A stretch of DNA of 12,875 nt, from the NCBI GenBank assembly GCA_027046625.1, contig JALTXX010000015.1:1-12875 (forward strand), read 5' to 3'. Below, piece by piece: positions 5,702-12,298 of the stretch (positions within the stretch are counted from its first letter, which is position 1; each line of letters opens with the position of its first letter). The stretch is from Candidatus Micrarchaeota archaeon (GTDB lineage Archaea > Iainarchaeota > Iainarchaeia > JAADDC01). Below the pieces are notes generated by a model. It had not been told where the DNA came from. It was given only the letters and a program-made list of their open reading frames with translations, and searched no databases. The position numbers were made by a program, and so were the translations under genes.

Positions 5702-8005
5702 GTGGAGGCCTGGAAGTACTCTGCTGAAGAAGTACTAAAAATGTTACATAGCAGCGTTAACGGGCTTAGCAAGGATGAGGCACTAAAAAGGTTGAAAATT
5801 TATGGAGAAAATGTACCATACGAGAAAAGGAAAAGAACCCTCATCCGTATGGTAGCAGAAGAACTGTTTAATCCTATGGGTTTATTGCTCTTAACAGCTT
5901 CTATATTATCCCTTCTTATAGGGGAAGTGCTAGATGCCCTTCTAATAGTGCTCATTCTTCTTCTAAACATAGCTCTTGGGGTGTATCAGGAATACAAGGC
6001 AGAGCGGATTTTAGAACAGCTAAGAAACCTCACATCCCCAAAAGCCAAGGTAATAAGAGATGGGGGCGTTCACACCATCGATCCAAAATATATTGTACCC
6101 GGGGATATTGTGCTCCTCTCTGAGGGAGATATTGTACCTGCCGATGGGAGATTGATAGAAGGGTTTGGCTTGAGGGTTGACGAGTCTCTCCTTACTGGGG
6201 AATCTATGCCCGTGGAAAAGGACGCCCTATGGAAGGGAGATGCACCACTTTTTGAGAGAAAGAATATGGTTTTTCTTGGAACGAGGATATTGGAAGGTTA
6301 CGGAAAGATGGTAGTAGTATACACTGGTAGGAATACCGTTCTAGGTCGCATATCGTCAAAAGTTGAAGAATTGGAGGAGGAGCTACCCTTTGACAGAGAA
6401 ATGAGGAGACTTACTTGGATCTTGGCTATAGCTTCTGTGATTTCTGGTATTATAGCTGGTATATTAAACCTAGGTAATGGTGTTTTGTTCTCCCTACTAC
6501 TTGCTATATCAGTCATGGTAGCCGCGGTTCCAGAGGGACTCCCAGTTACTATAACAATGGCGCTAGCTTACGGATCAAGGAGAATAGGAGAAAGGGGTGT
6601 CCTAGTGAGAAAGTTGAAAGCTATTGAATCTATGGGAGAAATAAATGTCATCTGTACAGATAAGACAGGAACCATAACCGTTGGGAAGCCCAAAGTTGTT
6701 GAGGTGTGGGGTGATAAAGATACCATTGCCCTTATATCAAGCTGCTGCAGAAGGGAACCACCAGACGAGTTGGAGGAGGCATTATTGGAATATTTTGGAG
6801 ATAGATGGAAGTGCAAACAATTTGAAGTTGTTCCTTTCTCCTCAGAAAGAAAGTATATGAGCACAAAAATTTTGTGGAAAGGTGAAGAGGTTACACTATT
6901 CAAGGGGGCTCCGGAGATTATACATAACATAGCACCAAACCACCAGGCCCTCACCATTGCCAACCGCATGGCATCCAAGGGTTTGAAAGTGTTAGGATTT
7001 GCCCTTTGTAGGAGGGGTAATTGTAAGTTTGTAGGTGTTGTTGGATTGTTAGATCCCCCTAGAGAGGAGGTTAAAGATGCCGTAAAGGAGGCTAAATCAA
7101 TGGGTATAAGAACTGTTATTGTAACGGGGGATCATATGGAAACTGCCCGATATGTTGCATCCCTTGTAGGCGTAGAGGGAGAAGTACTGGAGGGAAAACA
7201 GCTTGAACTTCTCGACGATAAAACACTTTCAGGGATAATAGATAAGGTGGGCGTGTTTGCTCGGGTTACACCGGATCAAAAGGTTAGGATTGTTAGGGTC
7301 TTCAAAGAAAAGGGATATGTTGTTGGTATGGTGGGAGATGGGATAAACGATGCTCCTGCCTTGAAGGAGGCTCACATAGGTATTGGCATATCCAAAGGTG
7401 CTCAGATTGTAAGAGAAGTGGCTGATATAGTACTTATAGGAAGTTATAAGGCTCTCGTAGAAGGTATAAAGGAGGGTAGATACGTAATTGCTAGCATAAA
7501 TAGCTTTCTAAGGTATCTCATACCCTCCAATGTTGGGGAGGTCATTGCAGTAGTTGGAGGATCCCTTTTAGGAAGTGTGATAATAAAGCCTGTTCAGCTA
7601 CTTCTGCTCAATATTGTAACTGATGGTCCGCCTGCGGTGGCCCTAGCATTAGACAGAGGGAAAGAAAACGTAAAACATGTTTTAGATGGCGTAAAAAAGG
7701 ATACCATCCTTGTAGGCAGCCTGTTAGGAATGGGTGCAATAATAACATATGCGATTACCCAATCATCTGCTGCTGTATTTCTATTCTTTGTATTAGGGGA
7801 GTTCGCAAGAATGTATCAGGTAAGAGGTAACTTCCTAAGTAACAAACTACTATTATTTTCGCTTTTAGCATCCCTTCTTTTAGGTTTTGGGGCTACTATC
7901 GCTTTTATGGATGGTATCTCTCCTCTCAATATTGTTATTATAGGCAGTGTCGTAATTGGGGTGCTTCTGTTTTCTAAAATGTTGGGACGTATAATAAATA
8001 TATGA
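5702..8005 (+). CDS. Cation-transporting P-type ATPase, P2A (Ca2+-ATPase-like)
   Basis: Motifs TGES, PEGLP, ICTDKTGT, FSSERK, KGAPE, DPPR, TGD and GDGINDAPAL. Membrane ligands SNVGE and QLLLLNIVTDGPPA. Confidence 0.95.
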   Translation: MEAWKYSAEEVLKMLHSSVNGLSKDEALKRLKIYGENVPYEKRKRTLIRMVAEELFNPMGLLLLTASILSLLIGEVLDALLIVLILLLNIALGVYQEYKAERILEQLRNLTSPKAKVIRDGGVHTIDPKYIVPGDIVLLSEGDIVPADGRLIEGFGLRVDESLLTGESMPVEKDALWKGDAPLFERKNMVFLGTRILEGYGKMVVVYTGRNTVLGRISSKVEELEEELPFDREMRRLTWILAIASVISGIIAGILNLGNGVLFSLLLAISVMVAAVPEGLPVTITMALAYGSRRIGERGVLVRKLKAIESMGEINVICTDKTGTITVGKPKVVEVWGDKDTIALISSCCRREPPDELEEALLEYFGDRWKCKQFEVVPFSSERKYMSTKILWKGEEVTLFKGAPEIIHNIAPNHQALTIANRMASKGLKVLGFALCRRGNCKFVGVVGLLDPPREEVKDAVKEAKSMGIRTVIVTGDHMETARYVASLVGVEGEVLEGKQLELLDDKTLSGIIDKVGVFARVTPDQKVRIVRVFKEKGYVVGMVGDGINDAPALKEAHIGIGISKGAQIVREVADIVLIGSYKALVEGIKEGRYVIASINSFLRYLIPSNVGEVIAVVGGSLLGSVIIKPVQLLLLNIVTDGPPAVALALDRGKENVKHVLDGVKKDTILVGSLLGMGAIITYAITQSSAAVFLFFVLGEFARMYQVRGNFLSNKLLLFSLLASLLLGFGATIAFMDGISPLNIVIIGSVVIGVLLFSKMLGRIINI

Positions 8006-8229
8006 ACATGTGGTTTGTGGGTATGATGCTGCTCTTTCTAGGCAGCATACTGTTCATGGTACTTCTTATGGGTGAGTATGTAAAAGACATGGGATTGGCA
8101 GCTGCCCTATCACAGTGCAAAACCCTATGTATAAAGGAAGGTACTAGGGAGTGCAATATCGGAGGGCTGGTTATATTACTCGATGAAAACTGTTCTCTAA
8201 GTCCAGCAGCTGCCCCAGTTAATGGTTGA
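8002..8229 (+). CDS. Small single-pass membrane protein with a 4-Cys C-terminal domain
   Basis: ATGA overlap with the ATPase stop; hydrophobic residues about 4-24; CKTLC..ECN..ENC. Confidence 0.6.
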   Translation: MNMWFVGMMLLFLGSILFMVLLMGEYVKDMGLAAALSQCKTLCIKEGTRECNIGGLVILLDENCSLSPAAAPVNG

Positions 8230-8607
8230 TGGCCCTAGAAAGATAGTGATACAATCTTCTCTTCTAACAGTATTGGGGAAAACCAGTAACACTATATCCC
8301 CCCTATCCAACACATTTACATCACCCTTATCTCTCACGATATAGATGTTTACATCTACGGGGGATCCATTGTACGTTACACTAATATCCTTGGGCCTTAA
8401 CTCTCCCCCTACTATTCTAAGATACACATTTCTATCATATACTTGTATTATTTCTCCCTCTGTTAGGAGTGTTCTCGTAGTTTCTGTAGAAGATATCCTG
8501 GCAGTAGACGCGTGGCTCTGTATCATACCTATTAATAGCCCTGATACTGATGAAACAATCAGCACAACAACTATAAACAAAAACAGAGCTTCATAAGACT
8601 GTATCAT
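8197..8607 (-). CDS. Archaellin/pilin-like (ArlF/G-like) membrane-anchored beta-sandwich protein
   Basis: N-terminal hydrophobic helix, then VYLRIVG, ISVTYNG and DKGDVNVLDRGDIV. ATGA overlap with the upstream gene and SD GAGGTGA 7 nt before the ATG. Confidence 0.65.
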   Translation of the reverse strand: MIQSYEALFLFIVVVLIVSSVSGLLIGMIQSHASTARISSTETTRTLLTEGEIIQVYDRNVYLRIVGGELRPKDISVTYNGSPVDVNIYIVRDKGDVNVLDRGDIVLLVFPNTVRREDCITIFLGPSTINWGSCWT

Positions 8608-9053
8608 CCCACTATCACCTCGAAATCTGAGTATACACCGTTCTCTGCCACCACACGTATCCTGTATGTACCAATAGAAAGAGTATATGGAATGTTTACT
8701 TCCATCAATTCGTTGGGTGACAGAATACCGTTGTTTGTTTCATCCACACAGCTGATTGTGTCACACCCACCCACATAACTTCCATTCACAAACACATCAA
8801 ATCCGTTTACATCAAGGGGCACAGATCCTAGATTTTTAACATACGTTATTATGTAATCGTTTGTATCTGCTGGGTATCCTTCCACTATTTTTATAATAGT
8901 AGAAGCTTGTTGGGCTGCTGCTGACATACGCTCGTTTATGGCATAGGTAACCCCTTTTAAGGCTGTTGTAATAACACTTACAGAGATTGCCAATGCTATA
9001 AGTGTAGCTATAAAGAATACAAGGTGGCTCATAGTTAGGCTGAATCCTCTCAT
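8604..9053 (-). CDS. arlG: ArlG/FlaG-like archaellum accessory (archaellin-fold) protein
   Basis: SHLVFFIA N-terminal helix, YVKNLGS, DVFVNG, LSPNE and YRIRVVAENGV match recalled FlaG features. The MRG/F start resembles a class III signal peptide. Confidence 0.75.
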   Translation of the reverse strand: MRGFSLTMSHLVFFIATLIALAISVSVITTALKGVTYAINERMSAAAQQASTIIKIVEGYPADTNDYIITYVKNLGSVPLDVNGFDVFVNGSYVGGCDTISCVDETNNGILSPNELMEVNIPYTLSIGTYRIRVVAENGVYSDFEVIVG

Positions 9054-9075
9054 ACTCTATTATTGTAGCTCCATA

Positions 9076-10509
9076 TTAATTTAACAACCACTCACCCACC
9101 TCTTCTGCACCTACCACTACGGTTGGTTCTGGGTCCCTTCTATACCTTACCACCCACACGCCACTAAGAAAGTCTAGATATCCTGTATATAGAGCTTGAA
9201 TCTCATCCAATGTCAGCAATCTTCCGTAAAGTATTACTTCGTCCAGCACTCCGTTAAAATCCCACGCTACAGCTCCTCCTGAAGGTTCTCCACCAAGATA
9301 TAGTGTGGATCCTGCCGGTTTTGTTACCACGCTTGTAATTGCTGCATTATTTTCAAGGACACCATCCACATATATCTCCTGAAACTGTCCACTATTTGAT
9401 ACTCTACCCACTATAAAATGCCAATTGTTGTACACGTTTGTTGTGCCGTAAAGAGCCGTCTCTGGGGTAGAAAACCACACATAGGGTCTTGGTATATTAT
9501 CCGTTCCTATCGCTCTGTTGTACACACCATCATATAGCGCTGTACTTACAGAAGAAGATGGTATATATGTCTTCATCCACAAGGCGTAGGTAAGCTCCAA
9601 TGGACCCGCATCTACATTTGTTTCTACCCAATCATCGTTGCCGTCAAATAAAATACCTCCACCGTAATAGCCCGAGGTTCTTGTAGCATTGAAAATCGTT
9701 CCTCCGTACACCCCTGTTTGGTCGTATACTGTAGATCCTGTTTCGTTAAAATGGAATACAGCTATTAGATTTGTGTCATCAAAGTTAAACCAGTAAAACG
9801 TTTTGTATCCATTGGATTCCGAGGTTGTATAGGGGTTACAATAGTACATCCAAATATTCTTGTCTCCATTTACCACATTTACCTCTACCCAGATCCTTGC
9901 AGCTGTAGAGGACCAGCTCTCTACCCAATAATCGAGTTTCGTAGTACCATCATAGAATCTGAGGTCATTACCGTCTGTAGTGGTGAAATCAAAGTTGGAC
10001 GTATTTAGCTCTATAAGAATAGAGTAGTTGTTAAAATCGAAGGTGGAAGATACGGTGATAGGTCTTCTGCAGCGCCACACACATATATCATCCTTTACTA
10101 TCGAGGTGGTAGACCCCTTATATTCTAGGGTTATAGGAAGGTTGCACACTCCAGGGAAAGGTGCATTTATTTCCCCCGTTTCACCCAAAACTAGATATCC
10201 GTTGTTGGTCTGATCATTACAGGACAGTGTGGAACAGTCGCCCACATATCTATGATTCAAAAACACTGCAATCTTGTTTAACTCCACTGTATCCAGTGCT
10301 GTCACCGTTATTACAAGGGTACTTCCTACTAATCTAACATTGTCTATACGCAGATAAGTTTTCTGTGATGCGCTCACAATAGATTGAGCCTTTGTTTGGC
10401 TTTCTTGGAGCTGAAGAGACTTTACAGTGTATAGAATAAAGACATAAAGTACTGCAACAGATAGTGCAATACCTATCAAAAACACGGGAAGGGAAGATAG
10501 ACCTTTCAT
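9076..10509 (-). CDS. Surface protein: pilin/ArlF-G-like N-terminal domain plus DUF2341 plus LamG/ConA-like domain
   Basis: MKG/L followed by a hydrophobic helix. Residues about 50-140 resemble the neighbouring ArlG. DUF2341-type motifs WRCRRPITV, DGNDLRF, LDYWVESW, RIWV and IWMYY. LamG-3-type motifs FHFNE, FDGNDDWV, WHFIVG, IYVDG, LYLGG and FNGVLDEVILYGRLLTLDEIQALY. Sequons NYS, NTS, NET and NAT. Confidence 0.85.
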   Translation of the reverse strand: MKGLSSLPVFLIGIALSVAVLYVFILYTVKSLQLQESQTKAQSIVSASQKTYLRIDNVRLVGSTLVITVTALDTVELNKIAVFLNHRYVGDCSTLSCNDQTNNGYLVLGETGEINAPFPGVCNLPITLEYKGSTTSIVKDDICVWRCRRPITVSSTFDFNNYSILIELNTSNFDFTTTDGNDLRFYDGTTKLDYWVESWSSTAARIWVEVNVVNGDKNIWMYYCNPYTTSESNGYKTFYWFNFDDTNLIAVFHFNETGSTVYDQTGVYGGTIFNATRTSGYYGGGILFDGNDDWVETNVDAGPLELTYALWMKTYIPSSSVSTALYDGVYNRAIGTDNIPRPYVWFSTPETALYGTTNVYNNWHFIVGRVSNSGQFQEIYVDGVLENNAAITSVVTKPAGSTLYLGGEPSGGAVAWDFNGVLDEVILYGRLLTLDEIQALYTGYLDFLSGVWVVRYRRDPEPTVVVGAEEVGEWLLN

Positions 10510-10535: not shown

Positions 10536-11735
10536 TTAGGATATTGCCTTGGTAAAGAGTTGAAGCAACTGGGGATACTGAACAAGTTTTGTTAGCATTG
10601 TCTTCAGTGCTTGCATTCTTCCCTCTGAGATATTTAGAACATCTTCTGGTGTTAGGATATCAGCTAATAGGTTAAAGTCGTCGTCTGTCAGCTTCTCAAA
10701 CATCTGCCTTAACTTTACAAGGCGCTCAAGTTGGTTACCTCTTTTCTCCCACCACATTTTATTATATAGATCGAGTGTTTTATCTGAGAAGTCTTCCTTT
10801 TCATGGGCTATAGCAGCTACCTCTGCAGCTATAGCACCTGCTTCCATGGCAAGATACATACCACCTCCATGAAGAGGGTGAACCTGATGAGCAGCATCCC
10901 CTATTACCATAAGACCGTCTGTTGTCATCTTCTTCATAAGTCCACCTACAGGTATTCCTCCTCCTTTTACCTCTATAATAGAAGCGTCTTCGAAACCATA
11001 CTTGTCCTTGTTTTCCTCTATCCATTTGTCTAAGTACCACTGGGCTGTTTTATCCTCCCTCGCGTCTATTCCTATACCTACATTTGCACTATCCTCTCCA
11101 GTGGGGAAGATCCACACATAACCCCTTGGGGCTATCTTGGTTCCGAAGAATAGGTGAATGTTTTCGGGATCGATATCTATACCTGCCATGTGATACTCTA
11201 TACCAGAATCTGCATGATATGCCTGTTGGAACGTTCTTAAGCCTGCCTTTCTTGCTACCATAGATTCGAATCCATCTGCTGCTATCACAATATTACCGTA
11301 AAACTCTCTTGTCTCCCCGATAAACTTTGCCTTTACACCGCTTACCTTTCCATCCTCCTTTATGATGTCAAAAACCTCGTGGAAGGCCAATACGGTAGCA
11401 CCCGAGCGTGTTGCCATCTTTGCAAGCTCTTTTTCGAAGATCTTTCTTTCTATGATGTATCCTTCTCCAGGAACCTGTATATATTTTCCGTTTGGTGCAT
11501 ACACTTTTGCACCACTTACTTCCCAACCTCTCCACTTAGGATCAGGCTCTATACCTAATTGATAGAAGGCGTCCTTCGCAAATCCCTCGCCACACTGGAC
11601 CGGTGTGCCGAGTTCTTTCTTTCTATCAAGAACGAGCACCTTCAGTCCCTTATCCGCCGCATTCTTGGCAAACCAAAGTCCTCCAGGCCCCCCACCAACC
11701 ACCACTACATCCCAGTCAGACCGCAAGTTCCACAC
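10536..11735 (-). CDS. Geranylgeranyl reductase family (digeranylgeranylglycerophospholipid reductase)
   Basis: FAD motif DVVVVGGGPGG, QCGEG, IAADG, archaeal GGR motif APRGYVWIFP and GDAAHQVHPLHGGG. The true start may be TTG 11726, which lies 6 nt after GAGGTG. Confidence 0.92.
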   Translation of the reverse strand: MWNLRSDWDVVVVGGGPGGLWFAKNAADKGLKVLVLDRKKELGTPVQCGEGFAKDAFYQLGIEPDPKWRGWEVSGAKVYAPNGKYIQVPGEGYIIERKIFEKELAKMATRSGATVLAFHEVFDIIKEDGKVSGVKAKFIGETREFYGNIVIAADGFESMVARKAGLRTFQQAYHADSGIEYHMAGIDIDPENIHLFFGTKIAPRGYVWIFPTGEDSANVGIGIDAREDKTAQWYLDKWIEENKDKYGFEDASIIEVKGGGIPVGGLMKKMTTDGLMVIGDAAHQVHPLHGGGMYLAMEAGAIAAEVAAIAHEKEDFSDKTLDLYNKMWWEKRGNQLERLVKLRQMFEKLTDDDFNLLADILTPEDVLNISEGRMQALKTMLTKLVQYPQLLQLFTKAIS

Positions 11736-11989: not shown

Positions 11990-12298
11990 TTATGTGCACA
12001 CAACCTTTGTGGTTCGTTCCTTGCCTTCCTCTTTAAAGGAAACTATAAATTCATCCCCCTCATTTGAAAAACACGTCAGTTTCCAGCCTTTTTCTATTTT
12101 TTCAGCACCACAAACATCAGAAATTTTTATATCTTCTAGGTATGTCCCTGGTTTTAGTGTTATAATAGCTCCGTCTTTTGTTAGTTTGCAAAGAACCTCC
12201 GTAGTGCGTGGTATCATAGAATCTGACTTTGGAGTATTGCTAAAGGCCAATGCTCCTAGAAGGAGCAGTACAATGGCTCCCACCACGAGGCCCCGCAT
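11990..12298 (-). CDS. Small secreted or membrane-anchored protein with 4 Cys, possibly pilin-like
   Basis: Signal or anchor MRGLVVGAIVLLLLGALA, followed by a beta-rich domain. TTTAAAAA at 12327-12320 upstream. Confidence 0.7.
   Translation of the reverse strand: MRGLVVGAIVLLLLGALAFSNTPKSDSMIPRTTEVLCKLTKDGAIITLKPGTYLEDIKISDVCGAEKIEKGWKLTCFSNEGDEFIVSFKEEGKERTTKVVCT

Follow-up and report, generated by a model that had tools for sequence, protein, structure and literature searches.

What is the role of three genes that resemble the archaellum stator genes arlF and arlG and are flanked by genes for a lipid reductase and a P-type ATPase? The question is raised by contig C15 of genome G000, a 652-kb assembly in 18 contigs, rated 94% complete, from a DPANN archaeon of the Iainarchaeota type. 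The stretch analysed here, referred to as the window, is the whole of this contig (12,875 nucleotides, nt), and the three genes, called P1, P2 and P3, lie co-oriented and tightly packed on its minus strand at 8197-10509, as seen in the list of open reading frames (ORFs). A preliminary description, made from the letters of the sequence without database searches, had presented them as an orphan ArlF/ArlG-like cluster with a lectin-type fusion, whose stator-like subunits might be repurposed for host attachment of a DPANN archaeon. The organism is indeed a DPANN archaeon. In our best reading, however, the trio is the ArlF/ArlG set, displaced and triplicated, of a DPANN archaellum that is otherwise ordinary though rearranged, and one of its paralogues is lineage-specific and lectin-bearing.

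A stator-family trio apart from the archaellum cluster

P1 (10509..9076, minus strand) encodes 477 residues, P2 (9053..8604, minus strand) 149 and P3 (8607..8197, minus strand) 136. The geranylgeranyl reductase (GGR) gene and P1 are 26 nt apart, P1 and P2 22 nt, and the P2 stop and P3 start overlap by 4 nt, with a Shine-Dalgarno-like GAGGTGAT just upstream of the P3 start. The ORFs have exactly the bounds given in the preliminary description, and its account of a hydrophobic N-terminal helix followed by a beta-rich domain in each protein, with an MKG start in P1 and an MRG start in P2, was borne out. Hydropathy, taken as the best 19-residue Kyte-Doolittle mean, gave one strong N-terminal segment per protein (2.6-3.0; residues 9-27 in P1, 11-29 in P2 and 8-26 in P3), and an N-terminal transmembrane helix with an archaellin-type beta-sandwich is present throughout the trio, based on hydropathy, AlphaFold2 (AF2) models of P1 and P3, and hhalign alignment to P2.

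P2 is the clearest ArlF/ArlG-family member. It matched the Pfam family Arch_flagellin (PF01917) with 43.2 bits, over the cut-off of 29.5, and its best NCBIfam matches were ArlF (NF052590, 62.4 bits) and ArlG (NF052591, 61.2 bits), both under the 110-bit equivalog cut-offs. All eight P2 orthologues matched both models (orthologue matches were counted at E <= 0.01), and a JGI record labels a P2 relative 'archaellum component FlaG (FlaF/FlaG flagellin family)'. Compared with PDB sequences, P2 as a single sequence found nothing significant (best E 0.34), and its profile reached weakly to FlaG 5tug (E 0.028) and to several archaellins. The head of P1 (residues 1-131) aligned with the P2 family in hhalign at 99.5% probability (E 1.8e-22, 131 columns) and P3 at 96.2% (E 2.3e-9), and the P1 single sequence found nothing significant among PDB sequences (best E 0.73). 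The ArlF model was matched by 4 of the 16 P1-family members (best E 1e-9) and the ArlG model by none of them; P3 orthologues matched ArlG in six of seven cases and ArlF in two. On these NCBIfam matches rests the description of the P1 head as ArlF-leaning and of P2 and P3 as ArlG-leaning, the domains being short and the two models nearly equal on P2.

P3 is the divergent member of the trio. It starts with MIQSYE, in which the class III signal motif is absent, and its Arch_flagellin score of 17.2 bits is under the gathering score of 29.5. The AF2 model of P3, with a predicted local distance difference test (pLDDT) score of 78.2 from seven sequences, contains a helix at residues 3-41 and eight strands in the order of the P1 head. 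It matched FlaF 4p94 (Z 8.8, root-mean-square deviation (rmsd) 2.4 Å over 80 residues, 21% identity) and FlaG 5tug (Z 8.2, rmsd 2.4 Å over 76 residues), and the top seven rows of a wide fold search with this model were all archaellum proteins, with two independent programs favouring archaellins and FlaF/FlaG. Since Z values of 8-9 are middling on the tool's own scale, the weight lies on the consistent list of matches together with the sequence profiles. The P1 head, P2 and P3 belong to the ArlF/ArlG family in sequence and in fold, the latter modelled for P1 and P3, and the archaellin-like N-terminal domains foreseen in the preliminary description are there. As a further observation, the heads contain conserved cysteines: a G-x-C-x4-C pair is invariant (C92/C97 in P1, where G90 is likewise invariant in the 16 sequences of the family alignment, and C97/C102 in P2), and P3 has C119 and an invariant C134. 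Disulfide bonds in the extracellular domains of a thermophile are their probable role.

A full archaellum cluster lies on another contig, C10. It encodes three archaellins (208, 256 and 248 residues), ArlH (237.7 bits, cut-off 215), a FlaC + FlaD/E fusion (ArlCDE), ArlJ (284 bits, under the 550-bit equivalog cut-off, yet the best match by far) and a tandem pair of ArlI (locus L015, 10180-11808 and 11805-13376, minus strand; 620.7 and 550.7 bits against the FlaI model, cut-off 550). The order is the 208-residue archaellin, ArlH, FlaC + FlaD/E, the 256-residue archaellin, ArlJ, the two ArlI and the 248-residue archaellin, and there is no ArlF or ArlG in this cluster. Model searches of the window found no archaellin, ArlH or ArlI except the matches of P2 and P3 themselves; ArlJ was seen on C10 only, no genome-wide ArlJ search having been made. 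The separation of the trio from arlHIJ described earlier therefore holds, with the arl cluster on C10 and the trio on C15. A genome-wide search with the ArlF and ArlG models returned the trio, a weak match on C4 and archaellin N-termini, and no other arlF or arlG. The C4 match (ArlF model, E 9.6e-6) was rejected as a second arlF, being a 145-residue pilin that starts with MRGISPIV and lies among housekeeping genes. Also rejected was the 256-residue gene between arlJ and arlCDE (269-279 residues in the sister genus) as a hidden stator, in view of its classical archaellin N-terminus and flagellin-model matches.

According to the text of Makarova et al. (2016, PMC4858521), FlaF and FlaG are present in all archaellated archaea, with one copy each. 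Because the C10 cluster lacks both, the simplest reading is that the trio supplies ArlF/ArlG. The label 'orphan' can thus be dropped, the trio being the sole ArlF/ArlG-family set found in a genome that has a full archaellum cluster without arlF and arlG, and in place of repurposed subunits we find what the preliminary description had itself named as the contrary case, namely the only arlF/arlG genes of a scattered but ordinary archaellum. It had proposed to look for arl genes, a prepilin peptidase and a second canonical arlFG; the arl genes and two prepilin-peptidase (Peptidase_A24) homologues, on C3 and C14, were found in the genome, and a second arlFG was not.

The arrangement is conserved. 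The same genus has full-length P1 orthologues in G001, G003 and G005 (45-49% identity), the sister genus has them in G006, G007, G009 and G012 (26-30%) with a partial one in G008, and eight further database proteins contain both P1 domains (DUF2341 and LamG). The order ferredoxin-GGR-P1-P2-P3-P-type ATPase was found in all seven relatives' loci examined, from two genera, and the arl queries gave no match in these loci. Since intact orthologues stand in the same order in relatives of two genera, the trio consists of real genes and not of chance ORFs. In G007 both ends of the trio's contig, which measures 47.8 kb, are at least 15.8 kb away, and in G006 the arl cluster occupies 16.9-25.4 kb of an 85-kb contig without a P2-like match. 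A search for related loci with the single P2 protein returned one true relative and a 34-residue match in a Planctomycetota contig, the latter regarded as chance.

The trio also shares the distribution of the archaellum. A sample of 121 genomes from the class contained nine with ArlH (E <= 1e-30) and 11 with P2-like genes (E <= 1e-5), all within one family of 14 genomes, and neither was found in the 107 genomes from 28 other families. Within the family, eight genomes have both, three only P2-like genes (G003, G008, G010), one only ArlH (G002) and two neither (G004, G013); the six genomes without the full pair are 68-87% complete. This co-distribution argues for a link to the archaellum over one to the pili common in DPANN archaea. 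That only one family of the class was found to have archaellum genes suggests that they were either acquired once by transfer or lost widely outside it. The layout arlB-arlI2-arlI1-arlJ-arlB-arlCDE-arlH-arlB, an atypical gene order, is conserved in the family, and no stator candidate was found in the family's arl clusters, where the extra genes are classical archaellins (the gene between arlJ and arlCDE in both genera).

The arl cluster has a second peculiarity. Archaella are normally described with one ArlI, and the two ArlI paralogues on C10 are about 41-45% identical (cross-matches), the pair being kept in G005, G006, G009, G011, G012 and G002. The motor ATPase might conceivably be a hetero-oligomer, or the two paralogues might divide assembly and rotation between them.

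The lectin-bearing paralogue P1

P1 combines an ArlF/G-type head with DUF2341 and a LamG/concanavalin-A-like domain, which substantiates the lectin-type fusion of the preliminary description. Residues 1-49 (10363..10509, minus strand) comprise the MKG start, the hydrophobic segment at 9-27 and a long N-terminal helix (residues 6-49 in the AF2 model), and residues 53-139 (10093..10353, minus strand) form the ArlF/G-like beta-sandwich with the invariant cysteine motif (hhalign; eight AF2 strands). DUF2341 occupies residues 145-246 (9772..10077, minus strand; PF10102 with 58.9 bits at 179-246, cut-off 23.4; model strands at 145-223), followed by a jelly roll at residues 248-477 (9079..9768, minus strand; PF13385 Laminin_G_3 with 53.7 bits, cut-off 27.6), so that both Pfam domains are over their gathering scores. 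The AF2 model has a mean pLDDT of 87.9 (16-sequence alignment) and depicts the extracellular part as a string of three beta-domains. In Foldseek searches with the whole model the LamG domain dominated the matches, the head thereby being left out. These matches are lectin- or carbohydrate-binding-module-type jelly rolls, among them domain 4 of the arabinanase AbnA (5hon_A, TMt 0.73, rmsd 3.3 Å), a sialidase lectin domain (E 1e-9) and neurotoxin-type Hc-N domains. The conserved columns D289-G290 and D423-E424 are only suggestive of ligand binding.

A fusion of an ArlF/G domain with DUF2341 and LamG was not found outside the P1 family in the databases searched or in the main texts of the literature searched, which excluded subscription journals; 'lectin' and 'LamG' do not occur in the accessible text of PMC8667602 and PMC13705601. 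Among the best 150 representatives of the P2 family in 1.84 billion proteins, 143 have 121-175 residues and six exceed 250. These long forms include P0121 with fn3 and a PQQ beta-propeller, P0073 with four tandem ArlF/G domains, and P0107 and P0166 with C-terminal extensions without assignment, which suggests that stator proteins are occasionally elaborated with extracellular modules. Like these four proteins, P1 has an ArlF/G-type head followed by extra extracellular domains, but DUF2341 and LamG, its own modules, are in none of the long forms among the best 150. Only P0202 (343 residues, LamG and a P2-type domain) turned up when longer proteins containing a P2-like domain were sought, and it was rejected as an independent fusion since it is the C-terminus of a sister-genus P1 run into P2.

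P1 can also be compared with lectin or adhesin pilins, such as archaeal Pilin_N + LamG proteins, the DUF2341 'PilY-like' proteins of type IV pili (PMC4858521) and bacterial modular pilins. It has in common with them a helix, a small beta-domain and a C-terminal DUF2341/concanavalin-A-like module, as well as a short leader-like M(K/R)G start. It differs in that its head is of the ArlF/G (Arch_flagellin) family and not Pilin_N, and in that its gene lies outside any pilus locus with ATPase and platform genes, in an operon with stator-type genes of the same distribution.

DUF2341 occurs at several other places in these genomes. In two relatives of the same genus a fourth gene, P4, follows P3 (L044 3014-4342 in G003, L041 3130-4476 in G005) and encodes 442-448 residues, in which DUF2341 and another beta-domain are joined to a P3-like head; the window lacks this gene and has only about 190 nt between P3 and the ATPase gene. 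On C11 of G000 (L045, 7554-8903, minus strand) a solitary 449-residue protein has a hydrophobic N-terminus, a small beta-domain, a DUF2341 (92.6 bits) that is 53% identical to that of P1, and a C-terminal domain. About 1 kb from this gene, a 292-residue protein starting with MRGISPIV carries an extra C-terminal domain (L045, 5563-6441, plus strand); the surroundings of both genes are housekeeping genes. Finally, a giant surface protein lies beside the arl cluster on C10 (L015, 2-5494, plus strand). It is cut by the contig end at over 1830 residues and contains two DUF2341 stretches, Big_1 and CARDB; the corresponding frames in G011 and G006 have 4238-5138 residues. Such a protein adjoins the arl cluster in G000, G005, G006 and G011, which are all four cases with that flank assembled, so that DUF2341 is tied to the archaellum in a second way. 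As an envelope protein or adhesin, the giant protein is a candidate partner of the archaellum.

Role of the trio and competing readings

Archaellum motility requires both ArlF, which binds the S-layer, and ArlG, which polymerises. In the canonical model an ArlG filament extends from the membrane outwards, an ArlF/ArlG cap binds the S-layer, and the motor pushes against it (Tsai 2020 and Umrekar 2021, in PMC8978795); the filament is described as pseudoperiplasmic and the cap as an ArlF/ArlG tetramer (PMC8978795, PMC12448462, PMC8667602). With a probability of roughly 0.55, we consider the trio to be the archaellum's ArlF/ArlG-family stator components, moved out and triplicated, with P2 and P3 as stalk and P1 as an envelope-gripping cap. 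The stator genes would have been displaced from the arl cluster to the conserved site between the lipid reductase and P-type ATPase genes, and the usual two genes would have expanded to three. P2 and P3 would build the stalk, and P1 would be the envelope-binding cap, a role that it fits since its ArlF-leaning head carries a lectin-type module. Its DUF2341-LamG part may replace or extend the S-layer-binding surface of ArlF and grip glycans or a glycoprotein of the cell's own envelope. Possible targets would be an N-glycosylated surface protein or the giant DUF2341 protein beside the arl cluster; glycosylated surface proteins are plausible targets because the genome has an STT3/AglB homologue.

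Complex formation was modelled with the soluble parts of P2 and P3 and with the P1 head as partner. The predicted three-chain complex scored 0.53, compared to 0.01 for the best of three controls, the runs agreed in 100% of contacts, and the partner pLDDT was at least 86. The mark that it passed is also passed by 116 of 157 solved complexes and by 2 of 215 mismatched pairs; scores of up to 0.60 were obtained by 18 of the 157 solved complexes and by both passing mismatches. The prediction thus gives weak support to a putative complex of the P1 head, P2 and P3, and since a FlaF-FlaG complex has already been solved (5tug), the pass may reflect likeness to it.

Several features of the trio agree with those of ArlF and ArlG as known from Sulfolobus acidocaldarius (PDB 4p94, 5tug/5tuh) and from the Pyrococcus ArlG filament (PMC8667602): the membrane helix with an archaellin-derived beta-sandwich, the small size of P2 and P3 (136-149 residues), the adjacent and translationally coupled genes, and a presence only where an archaellum is encoded. 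The conserved cysteine pair of the heads and the DUF2341-LamG extension of P1 (about 330 residues) set the trio apart from canonical ArlF/ArlG.

Other points count against a role as the archaellum's stator set. The trio is outside the arl operon, on a different contig from arlH in all eight genomes having both, and where a single ArlF and a single ArlG would be usual there are three paralogues here and four in two relatives. The scores of the window's proteins are well below the equivalog cut-offs (at most 62 versus 110 bits); the P1 of the window itself matched neither NCBIfam ArlF or ArlG nor Pfam Arch_flagellin, and its P3 matched NCBIfam ArlG with 21.5 bits through the N-terminal helix alone (residues 4-60). 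As kin are not independent, the co-distribution amounts to one lineage-level event and does not constitute a statistical test. Moreover, P1 and P2 open with [KR]G in the manner of a class III signal, unlike canonical ArlF/G, which are described without such a signal peptide (PMC8978795), and unlike the distant P2 relatives, which mostly start with MGF. The starts of P1 (MKG|LSS) and P2 (MRG|FSL) resemble the leaders of the lineage's own pilins and archaellins, with the same three-residue leader as in a G000 pilin (MRG|ISPIV) and sister-genus archaellins (MRG|QTGIGT). M(K/R)G with the hydrophobic stretch is kept across both genera, the start being present in 13 of the 14 rows of the P1-family alignment that cover the N-terminus (MKA in the remaining row). 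Because of this likeness, P1 and P2 could be PibD-processed filament subunits. There is also the nature of the putative ligand-binding modules of P1: DUF2341 proteins in archaeal pilus loci are read as tip adhesins (PMC4858521), and LamG and DUF2341 modules seem common in phage proteins and Pilin_N-LamG proteins (Atlas, leads only), which points towards adhesion and away from anchoring.

In an amended form of the preliminary idea, it is conceivable, although on the unlikely side, that P2 and P3 serve the archaellum and that P1 (with P4 in the relatives) is a surface adhesin whose DUF2341-LamG part binds host or substrate glycans. The ArlF/G-type head would then serve to anchor P1 in the membrane or to build it, perhaps once PibD has cut at M(K/R)G, into a short stalk of P2 and P3 or into the archaellum at its base or tip, and the outcome would be an attachment device coupled to the motility apparatus of a DPANN archaeon. 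Besides the leader-like start of P1, the two Peptidase_A24 homologues and the proposed tip adhesins of archaeal pilus loci, this explanation draws on the three beta-domains in a string, on the DUF2341 gene of the Methanococcus maripaludis epd pilus locus, which was recurrent in a transformation-defect screen (PMC10133366), on other pilin-headed proteins with binding modules in G000 (P0010 and the 292-residue MRGISPIV protein), and, as leads only, on Atlas clusters of archaeal Pilin_N + LamG_3 and phage DUF2341 + LamG_3 proteins. DUF2341 is appended as well to bacterial MotA/ExbB-like 'generic ion transporter' subunits (PMC12505986). What speaks for the stator set instead is that the P1 head is of the ArlF/G type and not Pilin_N, that the gene is locked in an operon with the sole stator-type genes and shares their distribution, and that no ATPase or platform gene is near it; exposure of P1 past the S-layer and contact with a host are assumptions of the adhesin explanation. 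Adhesion by the LamG head is a possible reading, one of two live ones for P1, and not the best-supported one for the cluster. We regard it as unlikely that both functions are united in a dual-purpose stator, in which the cap (P1, and P4 in some relatives) would reach through the envelope and bind host glycans with its DUF2341-LamG part, or that a short fibre derived from the stator, a PibD-processed P2/P3 stalk with P1 at its tip, has turned into a new type of adhesive appendage made of stator parts.

If the trio formed an independent short type IV-like fibre, assembled by another T2SSE and platform pair, the archaellum would have to work with no ArlF/G or with analogues that escape detection. 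Seven T2SSE matches in the genome exceed the Pfam cut-off, five of which map elsewhere than the arl cluster, no linkage of the trio to arl genes is seen in the eight genomes mentioned, and stator content can vary, Thermoplasma acidophilum being reported to lack ArlG (PMC12448462). Set against this are the confinement of P2-like genes to the ArlH-bearing family, with none in the 107 other genomes of the class, the typical ArlF/G size of P2 (as in 143 of its 150 best relatives), the naming of one relative as FlaG by its source, and the lack of an alternative stator candidate in the family's arl clusters, so that we consider such a fibre quite improbable. Hardly credible is a decaying relic of a rearranged arl operon with an accidental lectin fusion. 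Low scores to curated models and the database record P0202, in which the P1 tail is run into P2, might be taken that way, but in the window, as in relatives with identities as low as 22-44%, all three reading frames are unbroken, their order is conserved, and the invariant Cys, Gly and Trp columns and confident folds bespeak conservation, which argues strongly against decay.

Read as a displaced stator set, the trio bears on how the archaellum motor is braced against the envelope. The current view has ArlF/ArlG bind the S-layer, but archaea that lack one swim all the same, and their ArlF is reported to be without a distinct binding motif (PMC12448462). An ArlF/G-lectin fusion may act as a 'Rosetta stone' here, suggesting that the job of the family is to grip envelope glycoproteins, and P1 offers a soluble domain with a directly measurable ligand. 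A minimal DPANN genome keeps a full archaellum and scatters and triplicates its stator genes. Operon-based detectors count arlF/arlG within the arl locus (PMC13705601) and, with the stator genes scattered, could mis-score such archaella as incomplete. If the lectin head did bind host glycans, motility hardware would be linked to symbiont attachment, and if the stator were dual-purpose, the structure that braces the motor would also dock the symbiont to its host.

Neighbouring genes in the window

The flanking genes are a lipid reductase and a P-type ATPase, as the preliminary description had it, and both are conserved neighbours of the trio. The GGR gene (10536-11735, minus strand; TIGR02032, 233 bits) encodes a geranylgeranyl reductase of the digeranylgeranylglycerophospholipid (DGGGPL) type and is preceded by a ferredoxin gene, and the P-type cation ATPase gene (5702-8005, plus strand; Pfam and NCBIfam) is convergent to the trio. 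No ATPase (T2SSE) or platform gene was found in the window or in the seven syntenic loci. The other genes of the window are housekeeping genes, encoding a DHH protein, AMMECR1, deoxyhypusine synthase, a wyosine radical S-adenosylmethionine (SAM) enzyme and SAM decarboxylase. A scan for sigma-70 promoters and terminators gave 12 sites versus 10.6 expected and is uninformative for an archaeon.

Two small ORFs complete the picture. The first, at 8002-8229 on the plus strand, encodes 75 residues with one hydrophobic helix and four cysteines and has no Pfam match. It overlaps the ATPase stop by 4 nt and, convergently, the 3' end of P3 by 33 nt, and homologues of 118-119 residues stand at the equivalent place in sister-genus loci (L038 8201-8557, L043 8840-9199). 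Its product may be a small subunit of the P-type ATPase. The second, at 11990-12298 on the minus strand between the ferredoxin and SAM decarboxylase genes, encodes 102 residues that start with MRGLVVGAIVLLLLGALAF and have a hydrophobic N-terminus; it has no family match above cut-off and is kept in two loci of the same genus (26-33% identity, E about 1e-9).

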